From Henriciella sp. (GTDB lineage: Bacteria > Pseudomonadota > Alphaproteobacteria > Caulobacterales > Hyphomonadaceae): DNA of 64,000 nucleotides. A program made the position numbers and the translations under genes. Below are positions 1-11,208 of the stretch, piece after piece (the first letter of the stretch is position 1; each line of letters begins with the position of its first letter). The notes under the pieces were generated by a model. It was not told the DNA's origin and ran no database searches. It was given only the letters and a program-made list of their open reading frames with translations. The stretch is taken from assembly GCF_002733705.1 (NCBI RefSeq), contig NZ_NVWP01000034.1; one strand, written 5' to 3'.

Positions 1-1
1 G

Positions 2-355
2 GTCGGCCATGCGATCGAGTGCCGGATCAATGCCGAACACCCGGAAACCTTCGCGCCCTCCCCCGGTACGATCACCGAGTTCCATGCACCGGGCGGCCCC
101 GATGTACGTCTCGATAGCGCCGCCTATGCCGGCTACAAGATCCCACCCAATTATGACAGCCTTATCGGGAAGCTGATCGTGCATGGGCGCACGCGCAATG
201 AGTGCATCATGCGCCTGCGCCGGGCGCTGGATGAAATGGTGGTCGGGGGTATTCACACGACCCTGCCGCTGCACCAGCGTCTCGTGGATGCCAAGGATGT
301 GGTCGACGGCCATTATGACATCCACTGGCTGGAGCGTTTCCTGGCCGACAAATAG
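2..355 (+). CDS. accC: acetyl-CoA carboxylase biotin carboxylase subunit, C-terminal part (5' truncated by window)
   Basis: Manual frame-2 translation GHAIECRINAE...PSPG...PGGPDVRLDS...YDSLIGKLIVHG...; stop TAG at 353-355. Confidence 0.95.
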   Translation, partial: VGHAIECRINAEHPETFAPSPGTITEFHAPGGPDVRLDSAAYAGYKIPPNYDSLIGKLIVHGRTRNECIMRLRRALDEMVVGGIHTTLPLHQRLVDAKDVVDGHYDIHWLERFLADK

Positions 356-378
356 GTCCCGGGAAAGGCGCGAGCGCC

Positions 379-1047
379 ATGTCTGACCGATTCGATACCG
401 AGATGCTCCTCGACTGCTACCGGCAGGGCGTGTTTCCCATGGCGGATTCGCGCGAGGACATGAACCTCTTCCTGATCTCTCCAGAGATCAGGGGCATCCT
501 GCCGCTCAAGGGGTTTCATGTGCCACGCCGCCTGCGCAAGACAGTGCGCAAGGCGCCCTATCGCGTCACGGTAGACCTTGCCTTCAACCGGGTCATCGAG
601 GCCTGCGCGGAGGATATGCCAGACCGGCCCACCACATGGATCAATACACCGATCCAGAACATGTATGCCGCCCTCCACAGGCAGGGCCATGCCCATTCAA
701 TTGAGTGCTGGGACGATGAAGGATGGCTGGTGGGCGGGCTTTACGGGGTCTCGCTGGGCGCGGCCTTCTTTGGCGAAAGCATGTTTTCGCGGCGCACTGA
801 CGCGTCAAAGATCGCGCTTGTCCATCTGGTGGCACGGCTGATCGCCGGCGGCTACCAGCTGCTCGACGCGCAGTTCCACAACCCGCATCTGGAGCAGTTC
901 GGCCTGATCGAGATGAAAAAGTCGGACTTCATGCGCCGGCTCGAGGCCGCCCTCGCCATGGACGCTGACTTCTATTCGTCTGGCGAAGCGGGCGAGGACA
1001 GGCTTTCCGGCGAAGGCTGCTTGCACCTGATCACCCAGACATCATAG
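379..1047 (+). CDS. aat: leucyl/phenylalanyl-tRNA--protein transferase
   Basis: YRQGVFPM, HSIECW, LVGGLYGV...FFGESMFS...DASKIAL motifs. Confidence 0.95.
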   Translation: MSDRFDTEMLLDCYRQGVFPMADSREDMNLFLISPEIRGILPLKGFHVPRRLRKTVRKAPYRVTVDLAFNRVIEACAEDMPDRPTTWINTPIQNMYAALHRQGHAHSIECWDDEGWLVGGLYGVSLGAAFFGESMFSRRTDASKIALVHLVARLIAGGYQLLDAQFHNPHLEQFGLIEMKKSDFMRRLEAALAMDADFYSSGEAGEDRLSGEGCLHLITQTS

Positions 1048-1595
1048 ACGGGGTGTTCCAGCGCGCTGAGCCCCGGTGAGGACGCAAACATCCAGCCGGA
1101 AAAGAGCGGCCCGGCCTCTTCCTCTTTCTCTGCTGGCTGCCTAGGCGCCGTTTTTCTGTCCGCAGCATCGAGTTCTGCCTTAACGTCGGACAGGAGACGC
1201 GGCTCTGTCAGCGTGTTGGTTGCCACATAATCGGCTTCGGTAATCTGCAGGAAGGCAGCACTTTCCGGCGGCTCCTCCGGCGGGGTCTGGAAACAGACCT
1301 TCAGGTCGACTTCCAGCACGCCATAGACGACCGGCTTGCCGACTTCGATCTCAAAGTCGGTTGACCGGCCGGTGATCTTGTCGAGCGCGCGAAGCGTGGC
1401 CATACGTTCCTGATTATAGGTCGGACCGGGGTCTTCCTGCTCCTCTTCCTCGAGGCTTTCCATCCCGTCGGTCTCTTGCGCGCCCTCTTCGCTGGCTTCA
1501 TCGCCGGCGTCCAGCGCAGGATCGGTCTCATCCTGTGCGCTGGCGCCCAGACTGATCGCTGCTGCCGTCAGGGCGACGCAGAAAAGCTTTCTCAC
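972..1595 (-). CDS. DUF2155-type exported protein with acidic N-terminal region
   Basis: Signal peptide; LRALDKITGR, AAFLQI, FSGWMFASSPGLSALEHPVYDVWV; usual neighbour of aat/mlaD/NDUFA12; overlaps the aat 3' end convergently. Confidence 0.85.
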   Translation of the reverse strand: MRKLFCVALTAAAISLGASAQDETDPALDAGDEASEEGAQETDGMESLEEEEQEDPGPTYNQERMATLRALDKITGRSTDFEIEVGKPVVYGVLEVDLKVCFQTPPEEPPESAAFLQITEADYVATNTLTEPRLLSDVKAELDAADRKTAPRQPAEKEEEAGPLFSGWMFASSPGLSALEHPVYDVWVIRCKQPSPESLSSPASPDE

Positions 1596-2287
1596 TGATT
1601 GTCTCCTGCCGATTCCTCATCTTCTGTCTCATCGACAGAAGCCTCGGATTCAGGAGATTCTGTGTCGTCTTCTGCATTTTCCTGCGGTGTTTCGGCGCTG
1701 GAGGCCGAGGCATTGTCCGAAGCGGACGGGGCAGCCGGATAACCGCCTGACGCATCGCTGGATGAGCTGGAGCTGCTTCCACTGCCGCTGTCGCCATCAT
1801 CTCCGCCGCCGCTTGCAAAGGACGCCATGAGGGTGAGCAGGTCGACACTGCCCTGCGTGTAGAGGATTTCGCCGCAGCCGCTCTCGCCGAACAGCTCCTG
1901 ACCCTCGCCGCAAGGTTCGATCTGGCCGTAGCCGGCAGCAGGCTCGAGATTGATATAATTGCCGCCCAGCAGGCCTTCGGACTGGATACGGGCGGACGTG
2001 CCATCCTCGAGCGGGACCAGCCGGTCATCGATCGCCATTGTCACCAGCGCTTCTGCACGTTCCATATTGAGGTCAATCGCACGTACCGTGCCGACCTTGA
2101 CCCCGGCCATGCGAACATCGGTGCCGCGCTCGACCCCGCTCACACTATTGAACCGAGCGCCAAGCTCTACCGTGCCGGACGTGCTGGCCGAGCTGTCACT
2201 GCCCGTGCCGATGGCAAACCAGAGGAAGGCGCCGGCCACGACGAGGACCGCCGCGCCGATAATTGTTTCGAGCAGGGATTCACGCAT
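1592..2287 (-). CDS. mlaD: MlaD/MCE-family protein with long Ser/Asp/Glu-rich tail
   Basis: MRESLLETIIG TM helix; ARFNSVSGVERGTDVRMAGVKVG, SEGLLGGNYINLEP. Start placed at ATG 2287, coupled to the NDUFA12 stop. Confidence 0.85.
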   Translation of the reverse strand: MRESLLETIIGAAVLVVAGAFLWFAIGTGSDSSASTSGTVELGARFNSVSGVERGTDVRMAGVKVGTVRAIDLNMERAEALVTMAIDDRLVPLEDGTSARIQSEGLLGGNYINLEPAAGYGQIEPCGEGQELFGESGCGEILYTQGSVDLLTLMASFASGGGDDGDSGSGSSSSSSSDASGGYPAAPSASDNASASSAETPQENAEDDTESPESEASVDETEDEESAGDNQ

Positions 2288-2669
2288 CGGGGGTCCACGC
2301 CTCATAATCTGCATCAGAAGCCTGGCGCTTGCCGGCCTCATTGAGTGAGCCTTTCGGGTGATAGGCAAACAGGGTGCCGGTCATGTTCGGCTTATGGTCG
2401 ATTTCCCATTCGCGGCGATTGAGCGGCTTTTCCGTCGGCGGCTCATCCAGCGTGTGATGCAGCCAGCCATGCCAGTCTGCCGGCACCTTGGAGGGCTCTG
2501 CATAGCCATCATAGATGACATAGCGGCGGTGACGGCGCTCTATGGAGACCTTGCGGTCTTCATAATACTTGTTGCCGTACTCATCGGTGCCGACGAGCTG
2601 GCTGCGGCGCTTGATATCGAACAGGCCGCCGAGCGTGACGCCATTCCACCAGGTAAAGAGTCTGAGCAT
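2280..2669 (-). CDS. NADH:ubiquinone oxidoreductase accessory subunit, NDUFA12 (17.2 kDa) family
   Basis: VGTDEYGNKYY, RRYVIY, EPSKVPADWHGWLHH, HKPNMTGT, DYEAWTP. Confidence 0.92.
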   Translation of the reverse strand: MLRLFTWWNGVTLGGLFDIKRRSQLVGTDEYGNKYYEDRKVSIERRHRRYVIYDGYAEPSKVPADWHGWLHHTLDEPPTEKPLNRREWEIDHKPNMTGTLFAYHPKGSLNEAGKRQASDADYEAWTPDA

Positions 2670-2744
2670 GTCGCAATCCTGAAACTTCTGTGCGCAAACT
2701 GGAATATGGGGCAGGTCGTGCGGCGAATCCAGTTATGGATCGGC

Positions 2745-2760
2745 TCACAATATATGTGAC
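2745..2760 (+). promoter_or_regulatory. NrdR-box-like site
   Basis: TCACAATATATGTGAC versus NrdR consensus acaCwAtATaTwGtg (one base short), upstream of an nrdJ-like gene, inside inverted repeat CGGCTC...GAGCCG. Confidence 0.4.
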
Positions 2761-2835
2761 GAGCCGTCAAGCCTTCTGCATCATTGTGATGCGTCAGGAC
2801 AAGGCGGGTCCGCCGAGCCGTGAGAGGATGATGAC

Positions 2836-5103
2836 ATGGGACACAGGGAGTCGCCAGACGCACGCATCAAGGCAGCTGTGGAGGACGGGCGCATCGGCCC
2901 GGTTGCTCCGCTGGGCTCGCTTGCTCTCATGCCAAACGCACCATTCGCCGCAGATGGCGAAGCCGCCCTGCGAACGGCGATTGATGTGCAGACCAATGAG
3001 GCCCTCGAGAAACAGACACGGCTCGGGCTCGCCGATCTTGTCGAGCAGCTTGGCACGGCGCCGCGCAATGCAGACCTCGCCGAAGCGCTGAATGCGGGCC
3101 TGCCGGCACAGTTGATCGAGGCCGGTCTGACCCATCCTGACGGCTTTCCAGGCGTAGAAGCCTGGCTACGGTCCAGTGCCATGGCAGACGCCGACCAGGC
3201 GCCGCTCGCCCTCACCGCGGAACAATTTGCCGCAGCCCCGCTGATGGCCGAACATGCCCGCAGCGAAGGCATCAGCCTGAGCATCTGGCCGGGCCATATG
3301 CCGGACGCCGCCTCTGCTGGCTGCGCCCTGGATGTGAGCGGTTTCGTCTCGCCGGAGGGGTTCGAGACAGGTCTGCTGCGCGAGACTGTGGAGGCGCTTG
3401 CATCCGCCTGCAATGGCAGACCTCTAGTGATCCTGGCTCAGGGCGTGGCGGCAGCGACGCTTGCGCTGGGCGCCGACGATGAAACCTCTTTTGGACAGAT
3501 CGGCGCTGCGCTGATTTCAGGTCTCACAGCCCTCATCGAGGGGGGAGAGATGCCGCAGGATGCGCCAGACCTGCTTGGCACTGAGGTTCAGACCTGTTCC
3601 CCGATTGAGGGGGCAACGCTCGCCGCCATGCCGCTTCGCCTGTCAGAGGAAAGCCAGCTCATGCCCGCCAGCGACGGGCTTTCCGGCTCGATCTCGCTGA
3701 CGGTCCTGACCGAAGATGGCGCGGCAATTCCCTCTGCTGCCGCCATGACGGCACTGCAGCGCAGGGAGGCGGGCGGCCCGGACGCGCTTCGCGAAGCGCT
3801 TGAGGCTGGCTGCGACATTGACCGTCTGGAGGCCGTGAACAGCAAGGCCCTGCGCGCACGCGGATTTTCCGATGAAGGCATCTCGCGCGTGCGCAATGCC
3901 TTGCGCGAAGGCCTGCCGCTGGGCGCGGCCTTCTCACGCTGGGTTCTGGGCGACGATGTCATTGCAACAGAGCTAAAGCTGCAGCCTGAAGCCTTCGACA
4001 CCGACGGCCGGCCGCTGCTTCGCATGCTTGGCTTTTCCGCCGAGGAGATCGAGACAGCCGAACAGGCTGTCGGCGGCGCTGCGGAAGCAACGGCGCGGCG
4101 CTTCTTCGCGCAGCAAGGCATCACCCTGCCCTCAGCGTCGGGTTTTGCGCTGGCTGCCGCCAGGGGCCTGTCACAGGCCAGCGGGCATGGCTTTTGTGTC
4201 GATGCGAGCGACTGGACGCCGGACGCGCGTGAAGCCGCCCTGTCTGCGGGCATCGCCATCCATCTGGGCGCCCTGCCCCGCGAGGAGGAAGGCAAGGCGT
4301 CCGACCGCATGACGGCGGTCTTCGAACTCGCCGAAGAATTGCAGGCCGAAGAGGCGCGAGCCATGCAGGCTGGGGCCGCGCCCGGCACGGCCACCGGCGC
4401 CCAGCGCACGCGCCTGCCGGACCGGCGCAAGGGCTATATCCAGAAATCGACCGTCGGCGGCCACAAGGTGTATCTGCATACGGGCGAATTCGACGATGGC
4501 GCCCTCGGCGAGATCTTCATCGACATGCACAAGGAAGGCGCCGCTTTCCGCTCGATGATGAACAATTTTGCCATCGCCGTCTCACTCGGCCTTCAATATG
4601 GCGTGCCGCTGGATGAGTATGTCGACGCTTTCGTCTTCACGCGGTTCGAGCCGGCCGGCGAAGTCACTGGCAATGATCGCATCACCAAGGCGACCTCCAT
4701 CCTCGACTATATCTTCCGGGAGCTTGCAATCTCCTATCTTGGCCGTGACGACCTTGCCGAGCTTGGCGACGATGTCAGCCATGACGGCCTGGGCCGCGGT
4801 CTCAAGGACGGCACGCGCGAGGCGCCGCAGCCCCTGCCGGATGAGGCGGTGCAGTTCATTTCGCGCGGTTTCTCACGCGGGCAGCTGCCGGACAATATCG
4901 TCATTCTTGAGCGCAAGCGCGCCGAGCGGGACGAAGCCGCCTCAGCCAGCGCGGAAGAGGCTGAGGACGAGGAGACCGAAGACTATCTCAGCGACCCCTG
5001 CCCGCACTGTTCGAGCTTTACCCTGATGGCCACGGGCGATGAACGGGTGGCCCATTGCGCCACCTGTAACGAGCCGACCCGGTCCGAATCGGGATTCAAC
5101 TGA
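2836..5103 (+). CDS. degenerate class II (B12-dependent) ribonucleotide reductase homologue with conserved C-terminal (TSCPD/NrdJb-like) domain and Zn ribbon
   Basis: C-terminal [27 protein letters not shown]...[35 protein letters not shown]...TRFEPAG...[15 protein letters not shown] is NrdJ-like; no NPCxE catalytic motif; sits at the usual nrdJ position divergent from NDUFA12. Confidence 0.8.
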
Positions 5104-5172
5104 GCGGGGAATCTGGCAGCGCCTTTGCGTAGGAGATGCTGTGATCCAAAATCCAGCCCCTACAGGTGTGCC

Positions 5173-5664
5173 ATGCTGAAACATTTTTTCATTGCTCTCG
5201 CCACTATCGCCGCGCTCGCGCTTCCGGCCGCGGCTCAGAATGCCAGCGAGATCGCCAAGGTCCGCAACGGGCAGTCCTGTCCGGGCTGCAATCTGTTCCA
5301 GGCGGACCTTGCCTATTATGACGCCGACGGCATCGATGTTTCCGGCTCGCGCCTTCGCCAGAGCGATATGCAGCTGGGGACATTCGATAACTGGAATTTG
5401 CGCGGGGCCAATCTTTCGGTCGCCAACCTCTTCGGCGTGCGGTTCAATTCCTCGAACTTCTCCAATGTGAATTTCGAGAATGCGACGCTGGTGGGCGGCT
5501 ATTTTGGCGCGTCAAACTTCACCGGAGCAAACCTGTCCGGGGCCAATCTTTCTGGCGCTGATCTGCATCTGGTCCGCGGCCTGACGCAAGGGCAGCTGAA
5601 CCGCGCATGCGGCGATCGAACGACCCAGCTGCCCGGGGGACTGACCATTCCACGGTGCGGCTAG
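5173..5664 (+). CDS. exported pentapeptide-repeat protein
   Basis: Signal peptide MLKHFFIALA...; SCPGCNL cap; A(N/D)L(S/F)G-type 5-residue repeats; ACGDRTTQLP end. Confidence 0.88.
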   Translation: MLKHFFIALATIAALALPAAAQNASEIAKVRNGQSCPGCNLFQADLAYYDADGIDVSGSRLRQSDMQLGTFDNWNLRGANLSVANLFGVRFNSSNFSNVNFENATLVGGYFGASNFTGANLSGANLSGADLHLVRGLTQGQLNRACGDRTTQLPGGLTIPRCG

Positions 5665-5745
5665 CGGGCAACACATATGTACGTACTTGCAGTTATTACC
5701 GGGAATTCAGTTCAAAGCCTCCAGCTGAGCCCGTACATATAGCGC

Positions 5746-6528
5746 ATGCTTAATCTACGTCGTACCTCTGTCCTTCTGGCGCTTTCCGGTTCGGCGATGC
5801 TCATGGCCGGGCAAGCCAGCGCCCAATCGAAATCGACCCGTGTGTCCTGGGCGCCGTCCTATGGCGGGTCCTGCGTGAACTGTGATCTGCGCGGACGCAA
5901 CATGTCTGGCGGCGACATTTCAGCGGCGAACTATCCCCGCTCCAACCTCTCAGGCGCGTTCCTGCGCGGGACACGGGCGCTCAATATCAATCTGACGGAC
6001 GCGACAGCCAAAGGCACGGATTTCCGGCGCGCGACGCTGGACGGATCGCAACTGGTCAATGGCCATTTCGAGGGCTCCCGGTTTGAGCGGGCCAGCCTCG
6101 TCAATGCCGACATCTCCGGTGCGACCTTCAGCGATACGTATCTCAGCGGCGCCCATCTTGGCGCGGCCACGGCCACCGGCGCGAATTTCTCGCGTGCCAG
6201 GGCGTCGGGCACCGACTTCTCCGGCGCCAATTTGACTGGCGCGACATTCGAGGGCGCCGTCCTGCGTGAGGCCCAGTTCAATAATGCCATCCTGAGCGGG
6301 ACGAATTTCGCGGGCGCCGACCTTCAGAATGCGCGTATCACCAATACGAGGCTCATCGATGTGAGCTTTGAGGGCGCGAGCGGCCTGGAGCAGACCATTT
6401 TCGATGGCAGCTGCGCGGGCGAAAATACGGATGTTCCGGCCAGCCTGTCGCTGATCTCCTGCCAGAACGTTCAGCTGCCGGGCTCTGACGAACTTCGCGG
6501 CGGACTGATCCAGACCGCCGGCAAATAA
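5746..6528 (+). CDS. exported pentapeptide-repeat protein
   Basis: Signal peptide; SCVNCDL cap; long run of ADISG/ANFSR/TDFSG/ANLTG repeats. Confidence 0.88.
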   Translation: MLNLRRTSVLLALSGSAMLMAGQASAQSKSTRVSWAPSYGGSCVNCDLRGRNMSGGDISAANYPRSNLSGAFLRGTRALNINLTDATAKGTDFRRATLDGSQLVNGHFEGSRFERASLVNADISGATFSDTYLSGAHLGAATATGANFSRARASGTDFSGANLTGATFEGAVLREAQFNNAILSGTNFAGADLQNARITNTRLIDVSFEGASGLEQTIFDGSCAGENTDVPASLSLISCQNVQLPGSDELRGGLIQTAGK

Positions 6529-6558
6529 AAACGCCCCCGACCAAGCCAGGGGCGCTTT
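6529..6558. terminator. intrinsic terminator between convergent pentapeptide gene and aspS
   Basis: Stem CGCCCC (6532-6537)/GGGGCG (6549-6554); T-tract on the minus strand, weaker on plus. Confidence 0.65.
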
Positions 6559-6589
6559 CATTTCAATACAATTACTGGCGCGCAGCGCC

Positions 6590-8425
6590 CTATTCCTTCT
6601 TCGCCTGCGGAGCAAGGCGGATATGGAGCTCGCGCAGCTGCTTGTCGTCGACCGGCGATGGGGCCTGCATCATGAGGTCGCGCGCCTGCTGGTTCATCGG
6701 GAACAGCGTGACGTCGCGCAGATTGTCGACCTCAGCCAGCAGCATCACGATCCGGTCGACACCCGGTGCGATACCGCCGTGCGGCGGGGCACCGAAGCGG
6801 AAGGCGTTCAGCATGCCGCCAAACTCGGCCTCGACCACATCTGCGCCATAGCCTGCCAGTTCGAACGCCTTGAGCATGATGTCCGGACGGTGGTTCCGGA
6901 TGGCGCCGGAGGACAGCTCCACGCCATTACAGACAATGTCATACTGGAAGGCCTTGAGGTCGAGCTGCTTCTCGACCGTATCGGCCTGGTCCAGCGCGTC
7001 CATCCCGCCCTGCGGCATGGAGAACGGGTTGTGGGAGAAGTCGATCTTCTTGTTGTCCTCGTCCCACTCATACATCGGGAAATCGACGATCCAGCAGAAT
7101 TTGAAGATGCCCTGCTCGATGAGGTCCAGCTCCTCGCCGACCTTGGTACGGGCAGCGCCTGCCAGCTTGTAGGCTGCGTCGTGATTACCGGCCGAGAAGA
7201 AGATGCCGTCGCCAGCACCAAGGCCCATCGTCTCAAGGAAAGCCTTGAGATGGTCAGGGTCAAAATTCTTCAGGACGGGGTCCTGGCTGTCGACACCGCC
7301 GCCATCGGCCTCCTTGAGGCGCGCATAGCCAAGGCCGGGCGCCTGCATTTCCTTCTTCGCCCACTTGTCGAGGTCATCGAAGAATTTGCGGGATTTCTGC
7401 TCAGCCGCCTTTGGCGCGGGGATGGCGATAACCTTGCCACCGCCGCCAATGATCTTGGCAAAGATGGAAAAGCCGGTCTTGCTGTCATCGGCGAAGAAAT
7501 CGGTGACATCGGCAAGCTCGATCGGGTTACGCAGATCTGGCTTGTCGGAGCCATATTTGGCCATGGCTTCAGCATAGGGAATGCGCGGGAACGGGCCCTC
7601 GGGCATGGTGCGGCCCTTGCCCTGCCAGTCGGCGAATTCCTCGAACACGCCGCGCATGACAGGCTCGATCGCGTTGAACACATCTTCCTGCTCGACAAAG
7701 CTCATCTCGATATCGAGCTGATAGAACTCACCGGGGCTGCGGTCGGCGCGTGCGTCTTCATCGCGGAAACAGGGCGCGATCTGGAAGTAGCGGTCGAAAC
7801 CGGACACCATGAGCAGCTGCTTGAACTGCTGCGGCGCCTGCGGGAGGGCATAGAACTCACCCGGATGCAGACGCGATGGCACGAGGAAGTCGCGTGCGCC
7901 TTCGGGCGAAGAGGCCGTCAGGATCGGCGTCTGATATTCGGTGAAGCCCTGATCGACCATGCGGCGGCGAAGCGAGGTGATGACGTCGCTGCGCAGTTTC
8001 ATATTGGCGTGCAGCGTCTCACGGCGAAGGTCGAGATAGCGATGGCGCAGACGGATGTCTTCTGGATAATCCGGCTCACCAAACACAGGCAGCGGCAGTT
8101 CATCGGCGCGCGAGAGAACCTCGGCCTTGTCGACAACGACTTCGATACTGCCGGTCGCGAGGTTCGGATTGACGAGCGAGTCCTCACGGGCAACGACGCG
8201 GCCCTCAATCGTGATGACGCTTTCGGCGCGCAGATATTCAACGGTCTCAAAATCGGGCGTGCCCGGATTGAAGACGCACTGGGTCAGACCATAATGGTCG
8301 CGCAGGTCGATGAACATAACACCGCCATGGTCGCGGCGGCGGTGAAGCCAGCCTGAGAGTTTGACCGTGGCGCCGACGTCAGACTTGGTGAGTTCGCCGC
8401 AAGTATGGGTGCGGTAAGCGTGCAT
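6590..8425 (-). CDS. aspS: aspartyl-tRNA synthetase (probably non-discriminating)
   Basis: [58 protein letters not shown]. Start at ATG 8425; the longer ORF-track N-terminus overlaps rnd. Confidence 0.97.
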
Positions 8426-8513
8426 TCTCTCACTCCGAGGATTACTGTCAGGCGATGGGTTATGTGAACCTTCCCCTCGCCAATGTTGTGCGGATGCGAT
8501 ACGCGTGCGCGCC

Positions 8514-9686
8514 ATGACTGACAAGACACTGACGCCGATTACGAAGCAGGAAGAGCTGCAAAAGTTCTGTGATTCGCTTGCGGCGAGTGATTTCATCTGT
8601 GTCGATACCGAATTCCACCGGGAAACGACCTTCTGGCCAGAGCTCTGCCTGATCCAGGCGTCCGCGCCCGGCGTTGAAGGCGTGATCGACCCGAAAGCAG
8701 ACGGAATCGACCTCCAGCCTTTCCTCGACCTTCTGGCCGACACGTCCCGCGTGAAAGTGTTTCATGCCGCGCGCCAGGACATGGAGATCTTCAACAAGCT
8801 GATCGGCACCCCGCCTGCCCCGGTTTTCGATACACAGGTGGCGGCAATGGCTCTGGGCCTTGGCGATTCCATTTCCTATGACAATCTGATCCAGCGGGTG
8901 CTGCGCCGTCATATCGACAAGTCGAGCCAGTTCACCGACTGGAAGCGCCGGCCGCTCTCTGACAAGCAGCTCGCTTACGCCCTTGGTGACGTCACCCATC
9001 TGCGCGACGCCTATCTCTGGATGCGGGACGAACTGGAAAAGCGCGGCCGTATGGGCTGGGTGGCTGAGGAAATGGAAAGCCTTTCCGATCCTGCCCTTTA
9101 CGACACCGACCCGAAGAATGCCTGGCAGCGTCTCAAAATCCGCAAGACGCACAAGGAATACCTCGCCGTCTTTGCCGCTGTGGCGGAATGGCGCGAGCGC
9201 CAGGCCCAGACGCTGGACCGTCCGCGCAGGCGTATCCTGAAAGATGATGCGATCCAGGAGATCGCAGACCAGAAACCGAAGACCGAAGACCAGTTTGACC
9301 GTCTGCGCGCCGTGCCAAAGGGCTTTATCCGCTCGCGCAATGCCGACGGGCTTATGCAGACGGTGGAAACGGCGCTGGATGATCCTGATGCGCACGCCCC
9401 GCCTGCCCCCAAGCGCAAGCAGAACCCGCAGACGCCGGCAGGCGCCCCGGAAATGCTGAAAGTGCTGCTGAAATATGTCAGCGAGGATGTCGATGTCGTC
9501 CCGCGTCTGATTGCGAACGCCGCCGACATTGAACGTATTGCGCGCGGTGAGACCGATGACGACATTCCGGCCCTTACAGGCTGGCGCTATGATGTCTTCG
9601 GCCAGAAGGCGCGTGCGCTCCTGACCGGAAATCTCGCCCTCTCCTTCGAAAACGGGCAGGTCAGGCTTTTCGAACCTAAGAGCTGA
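8514..9686 (+). CDS. rnd: ribonuclease D
   Basis: [48 protein letters not shown]; HRDC domain. Confidence 0.95.
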
Positions 9687-9708
9687 TCTTTCCGGAAAAG
9701 GAGCCTTC

Positions 9709-11208
9709 CTAGTCCGCCGTGCTGATCTGCGCGTCGAGATCCAGGAAGGTCGCGAGCTGTTCGAACCGCTTCTTCACCGTGCCGGAAACCATGTCCGCAC
9801 AGCCTGGCTGCACTTCCAGCACGAGCTTGGACTTTGAGGGCTTCAGACGCGCCTGTTTCAGCAAGGGGGCAGACCGCCCAGAATAGACCGCGCCAAGGCG
9901 CATGGCGGCGCCCATGATGCGGGCAAGTTGATCATCGGAATCCAGGCCCAGACGCGTAAATGCCTTCGGGCGCTGAAATTTATGGGTGTAGCGCGCGCCG
10001 GTGGCATGCGCGAGCAGGACACGCTCATCATGGCTGATGCCTCGGATCGGTGAGCGCAGGATAAGGTAATAGGCCATGTCGGCGCGGTGGTCTGGGTGGA
10101 ACCTGCCACCGCAATCAGCCATCAGGCACGCGGCGCGGAACAGGCGTTGGCGCGAATGAGTGCGCGGAAGGACGGGCCGGATGAAGTCGTAAAGCGCCTC
10201 ACCGAAATCGAGCTGCGATTTCTCCAGCCGCAGAAAAGCGATCGTGCCGTCGATCAAGGCGTCGCCATAGGGCTCGCGCATCGTCTCGAACAGCATCTTC
10301 TCGCCCTGGTCGAAGAGAACGCCTTCGCGAAGCCCGTTGGCAGAAACCAGAACTTCCTTGAAGCCGCCGGCGTCGAAAACCTCATCCAGAACGAGCGCCG
10401 CGTGCACGATAGTGTCGAAGCGCCGGCCGACAATGCCGGAAATGTGTGAGGCAAGCTCCTTGTCGCGCTGCGTCGCAAGGATGGTCCTAACGACGGTGCG
10501 CACGGCCTGACCATTCAGGCGGTAACCGTGGAGGATGGCAAGCGGATAGGCTTTTATGTCCATATGGACGCTGGCGAGCGCGCGCCAGGACCCGCCAACG
10601 GCGTAGAGGCGCCTTGTCTTGGCGTTCAGAAGTTCTGAGGATTTGAGCACCTTGCGGATGGCCTTGCGCCGTTCTGCCGGCTTTGCGCCCTCCATATGCG
10701 ACATGGAAAACGGGCCGAGACGATGGGTTTCGCCTTGCCCATCCTGTCCGGCCGGCGTGATACGCTGAAATTCGAGACTGGAGCCGCCAAGGTCACTGAC
10801 GATCCCGTCGGGCTGGTCGAAGCCCATACGGACCCCCAGCGCTGACAGCCGACCTTCTTCGGCGCCCGACAGGATGCGCAGGCGCGCGCCAAGTTCGGTG
10901 GCCGCCATGCGGGCAAAGTCGGGCCCGTCCTCGGCGTCGCGCACAGCGGCGGTCGCAACAGCGGTGACCTGGGTGACACCCAGCCCGGTGAGGATGGCCC
11001 GGTAGCGCCGGATCGCCGCCATGGCATCCACCACACCTTCGGGGGAAAGCTTGCCCGTCTCCGGAAGGCCGCGGCCAAGACCTGCGAGGACCTTTTCATT
11101 GAAATATGGAAGCGCCGCAGCGCCCGTCACCTCATAGATAACCAGACGAACGGAGTTCGACCCAATATCGACAACGGCGGCTTTCTCAGGCTGCAGCGCA
11201 AGCCTCAT
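9709..11208 (-). CDS. ppx: Ppx/GppA exopolyphosphatase
   Basis: VVDIGSNSVRLVI, ATAAVRDA, LSGAEEG, DLGGSSLE, GLREG; downstream of ppk. Confidence 0.93.
   Translation of the reverse strand: MRLALQPEKAAVVDIGSNSVRLVIYEVTGAAALPYFNEKVLAGLGRGLPETGKLSPEGVVDAMAAIRRYRAILTGLGVTQVTAVATAAVRDAEDGPDFARMAATELGARLRILSGAEEGRLSALGVRMGFDQPDGIVSDLGGSSLEFQRITPAGQDGQGETHRLGPFSMSHMEGAKPAERRKAIRKVLKSSELLNAKTRRLYAVGGSWRALASVHMDIKAYPLAILHGYRLNGQAVRTVVRTILATQRDKELASHISGIVGRRFDTIVHAALVLDEVFDAGGFKEVLVSANGLREGVLFDQGEKMLFETMREPYGDALIDGTIAFLRLEKSQLDFGEALYDFIRPVLPRTHSRQRLFRAACLMADCGGRFHPDHRADMAYYLILRSPIRGISHDERVLLAHATGARYTHKFQRPKAFTRLGLDSDDQLARIMGAAMRLGAVYSGRSAPLLKQARLKPSKSKLVLEVQPGCADMVSGTVKKRFEQLATFLDLDAQISTAD

Follow-up and report, generated by a model that had tools for sequence, protein, structure and literature searches.

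An NrdJ-derived protein that lacks the catalytic parts of class II ribonucleotide reductases and is kept under purifying selection in Henriciella and related alphaproteobacteria

What is encoded by a gene that occupies the usual place of a ribonucleotide reductase (RNR) and whose product shows none of the residues needed for RNR chemistry? This question is raised by a 64,000-nucleotide stretch of DNA from Henriciella sp. (contig NZ_NVWP01000034.1 of assembly GCF_002733705.1), from here on the window, which holds on its plus strand, at positions 2836-5103, an uninterrupted open reading frame (ORF) of 755 amino acids (aa). An earlier note, made from the letters of the window, had described this ORF as an NrdJ-derived, seemingly inactive homologue of class II RNRs that was no ordinary pseudogene and could have been repurposed. 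This central proposal held, and it extends well beyond one genome. The gene descends in place from the class II RNR of alphaproteobacteria in its long form, the NrdJd type, and it is not a decaying pseudogene: it encodes a protein under purifying selection that is predicted to fold and which, as judged from its sequence, would be unable to reduce ribonucleotides.

Descent from NrdJ

The ORF scan and the synteny agree with the earlier note in that an intact ORF fills the slot divergent from NDUFA12, the usual slot of nrdJ in alphaproteobacteria. The gene order aat, DUF2155, (MlaD), NDUFA12 and, divergently, nrdJ is common to the dead genes and to true nrdJ, which stands in this same order in Microvirga, Bradyrhizobium, Devosia, Magnetospirillum, Pelagibacteraceae and others, and therefore the dead gene is a positional orthologue and no stray paralogue. 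The ORF starts with ATG, has zero internal stops, and is preceded by a Shine-Dalgarno-like GAGAGG 8 nt upstream and by an in-frame TGA at 2821-2823, while chance ORFs in the other frames of the 2836-5103 region reach at most 280 aa.

True alphaproteobacterial NrdJ among the loci compared measure 1197-1348 aa, in line with the note, which had called the full-length enzymes considerably longer, and the 755-aa protein is ~450-500 residues shorter than true NrdJd. A Pfam search gave a match of TSCPD (PF12637) to aa 537-631 with an E value of 3e-10 and no match to the RNR barrel PF02867 at E<=1. In NCBIfam, positions 967-1155 of PRK07562, the profile of alphaproteobacterial NrdJ (1222 positions), match aa 522-713, with a whole-protein score of 307.6 bits versus an equivalog cut-off of 1737. 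Both matches fall where a strong NrdJ likeness had been noticed (aa ~520-650), and the missing barrel match agrees with the diverged N-terminal part described there. The only match to a solved structure found by sequence (phmmer) joins aa 333-415 to residues 745-827 of the Rhodobacter sphaeroides class II RNR 7b9p_A (E 0.0075); the stretch with LGFSAEEI lies within it, and inside the hhalign match given below, and had rightly been recognised as the alphaproteobacterial insert.

Profile comparisons with hhalign were made against a true set of six long NrdJ (1203-1267 aa), with residues numbered as in the Microvirga NrdJ. The Hyphomonadaceae family pairs aa 258-749 with Microvirga residues 666-1231 (P 100%, E 7e-100). 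When aa 1-262 were compared directly, aa 43-260 fell on NrdJ residues 288-607 in a match that is collinear but weak (E 0.011, P 3.8%). The shortened forms of the Maricaulis/Caulobacter type provide a bridge, as they match the N-terminal part with P 96% and E 3.4e-9 and true NrdJ end to end with E 1e-155. With the N-terminal match bridged in this way, the whole protein is therefore a collinear NrdJ derivative that begins just past the position of barrel strand C (~Microvirga residue 288).

In a neighbour-joining tree of the common C-terminal 439 columns, all dead forms make up one clade, which branches by family and is nested in alphaproteobacterial NrdJd as sister to the live enzyme of Hellea. 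This topology fits a single ancient inactivation, which would have been followed by vertical descent and stepwise shrinkage. Since the tree carries no support values and Hellea belongs to the same order as Maricaulis in the NCBI taxonomy, several losses or long-branch attraction are possible as well.

Lost catalytic parts and retained modules

The gene, its parts and its upstream region are as follows, with coordinates of the window.

2836..5103, plus strand: whole gene, a 755-aa degenerate NrdJd orthologue (pseudo-NrdJ)
2836..3825, plus strand: N-terminal body (aa 1-330), what is left of the RNR alpha/beta barrel after remodelling, from multiple sequence alignment (MSA), hhalign and AlphaFold2 (AF2)
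3289..3339, plus strand: place of the missing finger loop (aa 152-168), a gap of ~19 MSA columns in all degenerate forms
3616..3651, plus strand: degenerated substrate-phosphate loop (aa 261-272), from hhalign; true NrdJ has VIAPTGTIG
3826..4080, plus strand: helical insert (aa 331-415), homologous to the R. sphaeroides NrdJd insert, from phmmer and hhalign
4081..4395, plus strand: what remains of the final barrel strands, I and J, with a long helix (aa 416-520), from hhalign and AF2
4396..4770, plus strand: IscU-like/TSCPD domain (aa 521-645), from Pfam PF12637
4855..4902, plus strand: linear motif in the linker (aa 674-689), from the Hyphomonadaceae-type alignment
4981..5100, plus strand: predicted zinc ribbon (aa 716-755), with C722, C725, C741 and C744
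2670..2835, no strand: divergent intergenic region common to the gene and NDUFA12, from NrdR-box scan, Rfam and intergenic alignment

In the MSA no shortened form has strands A-C, and with them the first redox Cys (ACFIQ) and the GSGTG...RRAAKMVVVD block are gone; by the T. maritima NrdJ structures the deleted block presumably includes the effector (specificity)-site segment. All of them also lack the finger loop ASNPCSEYMFLDDTACNL, at whose site true NrdJ carries ASNPCSEYMFLDDTACNLAS; this loop supplies the second redox Cys as well as the thiyl-radical Cys, the Asn and the Glu. The earlier note had placed IWPGHM...AGCAL by eye where NPCSE...TACNL should be, a reading borne out by the MSA and by the N-terminal hhalign match, significant once bridged. 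C163 pairs with the second redox Cys in the alignment, yet it varies within the family, and no Cys outside the zinc ribbon is invariant in the Hyphomonadaceae-type alignment. A motif census found NPCxE in all complete true NrdJ, whereas NPCxE and ACF are lacking in each of the 38 complete or near-complete degenerate loci and in 146 database proteins; PTGT is lacking in every degenerate locus ORF and in all but one of these 146 proteins. In the window protein hhalign pairs PTGT (675-678) with L267-S270, so that LRLS replaces it.

Towards the end of the barrel, ISGAISKTINM and ALYRDGSKLSQP, both invariant in true NrdJ, are unrecognisable in aa 416-520, for which AF2 gives strands at 453-456 and 474-477 and a helix at 483-512. 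The adenosyl pocket is placed between strand J and the finger-loop Cys; here the loop has been deleted, and the motif of strand J can no longer be made out. With the strand A-C segment gone too, neither an effector site nor an adenosylcobalamin pocket would be expected in this protein. The alignment search for intact catalytic residues, one of the checks proposed for the ORF, thus retrieved none, and because the elements are deleted and not substituted, a structural superposition of catalytic residues is not meaningful. In true long NrdJd, Cys are conserved in two more clusters, C-x2-C-x6-C-F-D-P and F-D-C-A-N-P-C-G (aa ~325-336 and 846-853 of the Microvirga NrdJ, L025; alignment columns C175/C182); the dead forms of Caulobacteraceae and Maricaulaceae retain C-x6-C of the first cluster, and the Hyphomonadaceae forms, the window protein among them, lost both.

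What is left of the barrel is nevertheless predicted to fold, as the divergent aa 1-520 modelled alone by AF2 reach a mean predicted local distance difference test (pLDDT) of 92 and a predicted template modelling (pTM) score of 0.86, and the pLDDT of aa 1-330 is >90. A Foldseek comparison of the full-length model with the PDB gave nothing significant, with RNR and IscU chains among the weak top matches. For the aa 1-520 model, 7b9q_B came first (E 0.05), followed by many chains of T. maritima NrdJ and of class I enzymes, and none of these RNR matches had E<0.01, with template modelling (TM) scores of only 0.1-0.2. At the single-sequence level aa 1-330 now appear as an orphan, since phmmer against 1.84 billion representatives returned their own family only, 28 proteins all of at most 795 aa. 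Gly, Ala and Pro account for nearly all residues that are invariant in this N-terminal body, which argues against a new ligand pocket.

The C-terminal tail tells which part of the redox machinery disappeared. By alignment, C722, C725, C741 and C744 correspond to the four Cys for which zinc binding has been proposed in the cysteine-rich domain of NrdJd. In the NrdJd of S. nassauensis these are C920, C923, C936 and C939, C933 and C945 are the proposed redox shuttle to the active site, and turnover needed all six C-terminal Cys (PMC5704485). The equivalents of C933 and C945 in the window protein are V738 and S750, so that four Cys stand in place of the six-Cys array. The tail of true alphaproteobacterial NrdJ reads C-x2-C-x10-C-x2-C-x2-C-x5-C, and that of the shortened forms C-x2-C ... 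C-x2-C. Across 80 loci, complete ORFs without NPCxE, ACF and PTGT have four tail Cys (one has five) and ORFs with NPCxE have six (seven in one case); exactly four were counted in 114 of 118 Caulobacteraceae-type and 27 of 28 Hyphomonadaceae-type proteins. Catalysis and electron supply appear to have been lost together, with the structural zinc site retained. The protein has a pI of 4.5 and a net charge of -58, with all its domains acidic, and a DNA- or RNA-binding role of the zinc ribbon, also considered, is unlikely on account of this charge.

Other modules were kept as a whole. The insert, which would correspond to the 'HUG' dimer-stabilising domain, has as invariant residues R342, G343, S367, R368, W369, G372, D373, D388 and G399. 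The IscU-like domain, which holds no Cys, is the best-conserved part of the protein and is near-identical in dead and active alphaproteobacterial NrdJd. There are 89 alignment columns that are at least 90% conserved with the same residue in the degenerate and the true sets, and, apart from the four zinc Cys, nearly all of them fall within this domain (aa 524-640). AF2 gives it three strands plus helices, with weak Foldseek matches to IscU, and the C-terminal extension of class II enzymes has been described as an IscU-like domain and a zinc finger (PMC9669993; PMC5704485). The linker that follows carries the motif I-S-x-G-F-x-R-G-x-x-P-D-N-(I/L)-V (aa 675-689), which does not vary across the Hyphomonadaceae-type alignment, the invariant linker residues being S676, G678, S680, R681, G682, P685, D686, N687, I688 and V689; D686 and N687 are conserved in at least 97% of the degenerate proteins and not in true NrdJ. 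The low-confidence linkers of the AF2 model are 516-527 and 646-713, with pLDDT <50 at 663-695.

Relatives, selection and expression

Full-length relatives of ~745-810 aa, from 100% to ~40% identical, occur in Henriciella, Hyphomonas, Ponticaulis and other Hyphomonadaceae, and the sequence of the window protein is found in many marine metagenomes. Shortened NrdJ-like ORFs of 813-1089 aa are present in Caulobacter, Brevundimonas, Phenylobacterium, Maricaulis, Marinicauda, Oceanicaulis, Glycocaulis and a metagenome-assembled genome (MAG) of Maricaulaceae. A profile of the Caulobacteraceae forms retrieved 211 proteins at E <= 1e-10, named among others 'ribonucleotide reductase', 'ribonucleotide reductase-related protein', 'TSCPD domain-containing protein' and 'vitamin B12-dependent ribonucleotide reductase'. 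A full-length database search yielded 29 relatives only, its candidate list being saturated by Ala-rich words, and a search with the C-terminal domain alone gave mainly fragments. More than 150 intact relatives in Hyphomonadaceae, Maricaulaceae and Caulobacteraceae share the same losses together with a conserved start and end.

Three further loci deserve a comment. Two long-read MAGs contain truncated ORFs of true-type NrdJ of 754 and 452 aa (L022:9218-11482; L079, match 10001-11158), with six tail Cys and, in L022, PTGT; these truncations are probably frameshift assembly errors and not a second kind of shortened protein. In a Henriciella MAG (L003:9215-12211) the frame is open upstream, which results in a nominal ORF of 998 aa, and the alignment with relatives indicates a start near 9970-10000.

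Analysis of dN/dS by domain and of the reading frames of the relatives, as the earlier note had advised, contradicts simple decay: neither stops or frameshifts nor a dN/dS near 1 were found. The N-terminal part had a dN/dS of 0.088 in the Hyphomonas pair L007/L008 (dS 0.74) and of 0.21 in L006/L007; for the same two pairs the values were 0.039 and 0.15 in the insert, 0.000 and 0.043 in the IscU-like domain, and 0.075 and 0.19 overall. Where dS was unsaturated, the ranges were about 0.09-0.24 for the fastest domains, 0.01-0.15 for the insert, 0.00-0.07 for the IscU-like domain and 0.075-0.22 overall. The note had seen one domain under strong selection, and purifying selection is indeed found there, but it is not limited to that domain, as every domain is constrained, even if the N-terminal two thirds evolve fast (37-53% identity within Henriciella). 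By its homology to an enzyme family, the loss of catalytic residues and purifying selection the protein qualifies as a pseudoenzyme, a term that also calls for expression, which is shown in part: metatranscriptome contigs are identical to segments of the gene, e.g., 3633-3783, 4647-4814 and 4821-4977.

Additional data come from C. crescentus. In Table S1 of PMC6538847, CCNA_01963, CCNA_01964 and CCNA_01966 correspond to CC1886, CC1887 and CC1889, respectively, and CC1887 and CC1886 have been described as a 105-aa signature protein with eukaryotic homologues and a 223-aa alpha-specific signature protein (PMC1182365). CC1887 is taken to be of the NDUFA12 family and CC1886 to be DUF2155, and with these identities CCNA_01966, called NrdJ in PMC6538847 and in a 2024 preprint, would therefore stand in the syntenic slot. 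Every sampled Caulobacter genome, including that of C. segnis, has a dead form in the slot adjacent to NDUFA12. CCNA_01966 is translated at ~1020-1209 units versus 3730-6732 for NrdB (PMC6538847, Table S1). Moreover, a pull-down with the stress small RNA GsrN enriched a 50-nt window inside its transcript region 11-fold (PMC5869019), and a post-transcriptional link between the two is possible.

As the dead protein would, by its sequence, be unable to perform RNR chemistry, dNTP synthesis in these organisms would have to be provided by another RNR. C. crescentus has a class I NrdE/NrdB according to the literature. In the window and the 80 loci, the only other RNR that turned up is a complete 765-aa NrdJ of Maricaulis (L021:16153-18450, minus strand), located 5 kb from the dead gene, with PF02867 at E 1.5e-122, NPCGE, a six-Cys tail and its own TSCPD domain; queries with the N-terminal 900 aa of true NrdJ and with E. 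coli NrdA/NrdB (tblastn) gave nothing else in the window or in 14 orthologous loci. A small ORF that adjoins the Maricaulis enzyme (L021:18634-19089, minus strand) was judged by eye to encode an Rrf2-type regulator.

Regarding regulation, NrdR-box-like sites with 13-14 of 16 positions were found upstream of three true nrdJ loci, and the nrdJ of Ensifer has two candidate NrdR boxes 32 bp apart. The same scan gave no match of at least 12/16 upstream of any degenerate gene of Hyphomonadaceae or Maricaulaceae, and one 12/16 match in each of the Caulobacteraceae degenerate loci L026 and L039. No cobalamin riboswitch or other Rfam family was detected in positions 1-10000 of the window. The NDUFA12/dead-nrdJ promoter region contains a palindrome, TCACAATATATGTGA, at 2745-2759, of which only the left half is an NrdR-box half-site; the intergenic alignment shows it preserved in H. 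marina, eroded in other Henriciella and missing from Hyphomonas, and it may be a relic operator.

Directly downstream of the dead nrdJ, 5170-5664 and 5746-6528 encode tandem pentapeptide-repeat proteins with signal-peptide-like N-termini, and the order dead-nrdJ, penta1, penta2, aspS (minus strand) is maintained across Caulobacteraceae, Maricaulaceae and Hyphomonadaceae. As no terminator-like site was found between 5103 and 5170, and one stands at 6577-6589, the gene and the pentapeptide genes are possibly co-transcribed. On the other side, 972-2669 (minus strand) hold a conserved alphaproteobacterial cluster of DUF2155, an MlaD-domain protein and an NDUFA12-like protein, with aat upstream. 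The MlaD ORF (1592-2368) overlaps the end of the NDUFA12 ORF (2280-2669) by 89 nt, and therefore its true start is probably further downstream.

Possible roles of the dead protein

How does this protein compare with known systems? With active NrdJd (PRK07562; 7B9P/7B9Q; the S. nassauensis enzyme of Loderer et al. 2017) it shares the NDUFA12 slot, a collinear whole-length homology, the insert, a near-identical IscU-like/TSCPD domain and the four Zn-ligand Cys, but it has lost strands A-C, the finger loop, PTGT, the strand I/J motifs and both redox pairs, and its gene has no NrdR box of comparable score. Like the NrdJb of the split NrdJa+NrdJb system of Pseudomonas aeruginosa, it is a protein with a cysteine-rich domain and no working catalytic site; NrdJb, however, has six Cys, adjoins nrdJa and forms an active enzyme with NrdJa, whereas the window protein lost two of the six Cys, keeps a barrel remnant and the insert, and has no nrdJa nearby. 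Stand-alone TSCPD proteins (PF12637) resemble it in that a TSCPD domain is the one domain above the Pfam threshold, and databases name it 'TSCPD domain-containing protein'; in the window protein, though, ATSILDY replaces TSCPD, the four typical Cys are absent and the domain makes up ~15% of the whole. RNR-derived proteins that lost their catalytic residues and were retained, either repurposed or as structural components, exist elsewhere: M45 of murine cytomegalovirus (MCMV) and UL45 of human cytomegalovirus (HCMV) are dead homologues of the RNR large subunit, M45 being devoted to the inhibition of cell death, and yeast Rnr4 is an inactive small subunit that works as a structural partner. These are of class I origin and keep a complete fold, whereas the window protein is of class II origin, has a barrel reduced by a third, and is encoded by a chromosomal gene inherited vertically across an order-level bacterial clade. 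A dead NrdJ family of class II is apparently undescribed, as no description of it was found in the searchable literature.

The explanation that seems to us the most likely, and somewhat more probable than not, is that of an intact, dead NrdJd which, without catalysis, would act in dimeric or oligomeric form as a scaffold or adaptor, a role that among the roles suggested by the earlier note is still the best fit. Selection would preserve a set of ancestral interaction modules, namely the insert at aa 331-415, the IscU-like domain and the four-Cys zinc ribbon, along with the new linker motif, and the remodelled barrel remnant would serve as the structural body. In active NrdJd the IscU-like domain is implicated in oligomerisation and in the positioning of the C-terminal tail, and the R. 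sphaeroides insert reportedly stabilises the active dimer (Fietze et al. 2022). The scaffold would bind a partner that in active NrdJd docks on the cysteine-rich domain, and possibly a further one through the ISxGFxRGxxPDN motif, and it would bind neither substrate nor effector nucleotides nor adenosylcobalamin.

Several points weigh against this scaffold or adaptor role or against the frame in which it stands. It was reached by eliminating alternatives and from which modules survive, and it is mainly from sequence profiles that the N-terminal part can be likened to a barrel remnant, because Foldseek gave no significant match. No second RNR was found by the tblastn queries in the 64-kb window, and CCNA_01966 would be a dead form by its synteny and by the state of other Caulobacter genomes. 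The participation of the IscU-like part in oligomerisation is a published suggestion only (PMC9669993).

Other readings have to be considered. The protein could be a trans-acting partner of a live RNR, NrdJb-like or 'prozyme'-like, that hetero-oligomerises with it by way of the cysteine-rich domain or the insert and activates, inhibits or stabilises it. In split NrdJa+NrdJb the cysteine-rich domain indeed lies on a separate polypeptide, and inter-subunit electron transfer does occur in NrdJd (PMC5704485); Maricaulis has its live NrdJ close to the dead gene, and the modules retained are those used in oligomerisation. But the Maricaulis enzyme, with its own TSCPD domain, also has its own complete six-Cys domain, no nrdJa-like gene adjoins the dead one in the window (tblastn), and the dead genes are without NrdR boxes of true-nrdJ score, with no sign of co-regulation with dNTP synthesis. 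Above all, both shuttle Cys are missing in all members, while the S. nassauensis enzyme needed all six tail Cys, so that a redox-partner role is excluded. With exactly these two Cys lost and the four Zn ligands retained, the NrdJb-like partner put forward in the earlier note is disfavoured, and a trans-acting role is on the whole unlikely. A ligand sensor, by which the dead enzyme would bind adenosylcobalamin or (deoxy)nucleotides and report their level to a regulatory target, is decidedly improbable. It would suit the descent from an enzyme that binds B12 and dNTPs, a barrel topology of which about two thirds seem to be left and are confidently folded in the model, and the C. crescentus literature, which groups the gene with B12-dependent functions. 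In the solved class II RNRs, however, the effector (specificity) site is built by the strand A-C segment, deleted here in every degenerate form; the finger loop is gone and the strand J motif unrecognisable, that is, the walls of the adenosyl pocket; the body has no invariant polar residues; and the locus shows neither a cobalamin riboswitch nor an NrdR box. These deletions of the specificity-site segment and of the finger loop, a wall of the adenosyl pocket, equally disfavour the nucleotide or B12 binding that had been proposed for the ORF.

The reading frame could also be a functionless relic, either slowly decaying in GC-rich DNA, where long spurious ORFs occur, or kept only for the transcription or translation of the genes downstream. 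The fast evolution of the N-terminal two thirds and the absence of a terminator-like site before the pentapeptide-repeat genes would be understood in this way, but not the dN/dS of 0.09-0.24 even in the fastest domains with unsaturated dS, the intact ORFs in more than 150 proteins of three families, the pLDDT of 92 for the divergent part, the 89 columns as tight as in live enzymes and the newly fixed clade-specific motif, all of which make a relic extremely unlikely. Finally, the databases annotate these proteins as (vitamin B12-dependent) ribonucleotide reductase and the Caulobacter papers speak of NrdJ, as if the protein were still an RNR whose active site or radical source would be an unconventional one. 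This is scarcely credible for a protein that has conserved Cys in the zinc ribbon only, whose barrel is short of three of its ten strands, which has lost the finger and phosphate loops along with both redox pairs, and which scores far under the PRK07562 cut-off.

Beyond the scaffold or adaptor role, we advance with considerable doubt that the cysteine-rich domain may have a second constrained function, independent of reduction and electron delivery, and that the Caulobacter/Hyphomonas/Maricaulis lineage retained the dead enzyme solely for it after another RNR took over the supply of dNTPs. Such a function might be, for example, the docking to a conserved partner, either the physiological reductase or a component of replication or the cell cycle. 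If this were true, CCNA_01966 would be a pseudoenzyme whose function is open to genetic dissection in C. crescentus straight away.

The consequences for the field are of different kinds. More than 150 proteins labelled as (vitamin B12-dependent) ribonucleotide reductase would, by their sequences, be unable to work as RNRs, and metabolic reconstructions with a B12-dependent dNTP route in these organisms are probably wrong, including the C. crescentus schemes that list CCNA_01966. For enzymology, the role of the IscU-like cysteine-rich domain of most class II RNRs and their physiological reductant are standing questions, for which the dead family represents a natural separation-of-function allele: catalysis and the redox pair are gone and the IscU-like domain is held as tightly as in active NrdJd. 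In evolutionary terms, an enzyme of an essential pathway turned in place into a pseudoenzyme and then shrank, to ~990, 850-930 and 750 aa, over a deep radiation. The value of the finding thus lies in the correction of annotations, in the probable presence of the pseudoenzyme in a genetic model organism and in a natural dissection of the class II C-terminal domain.

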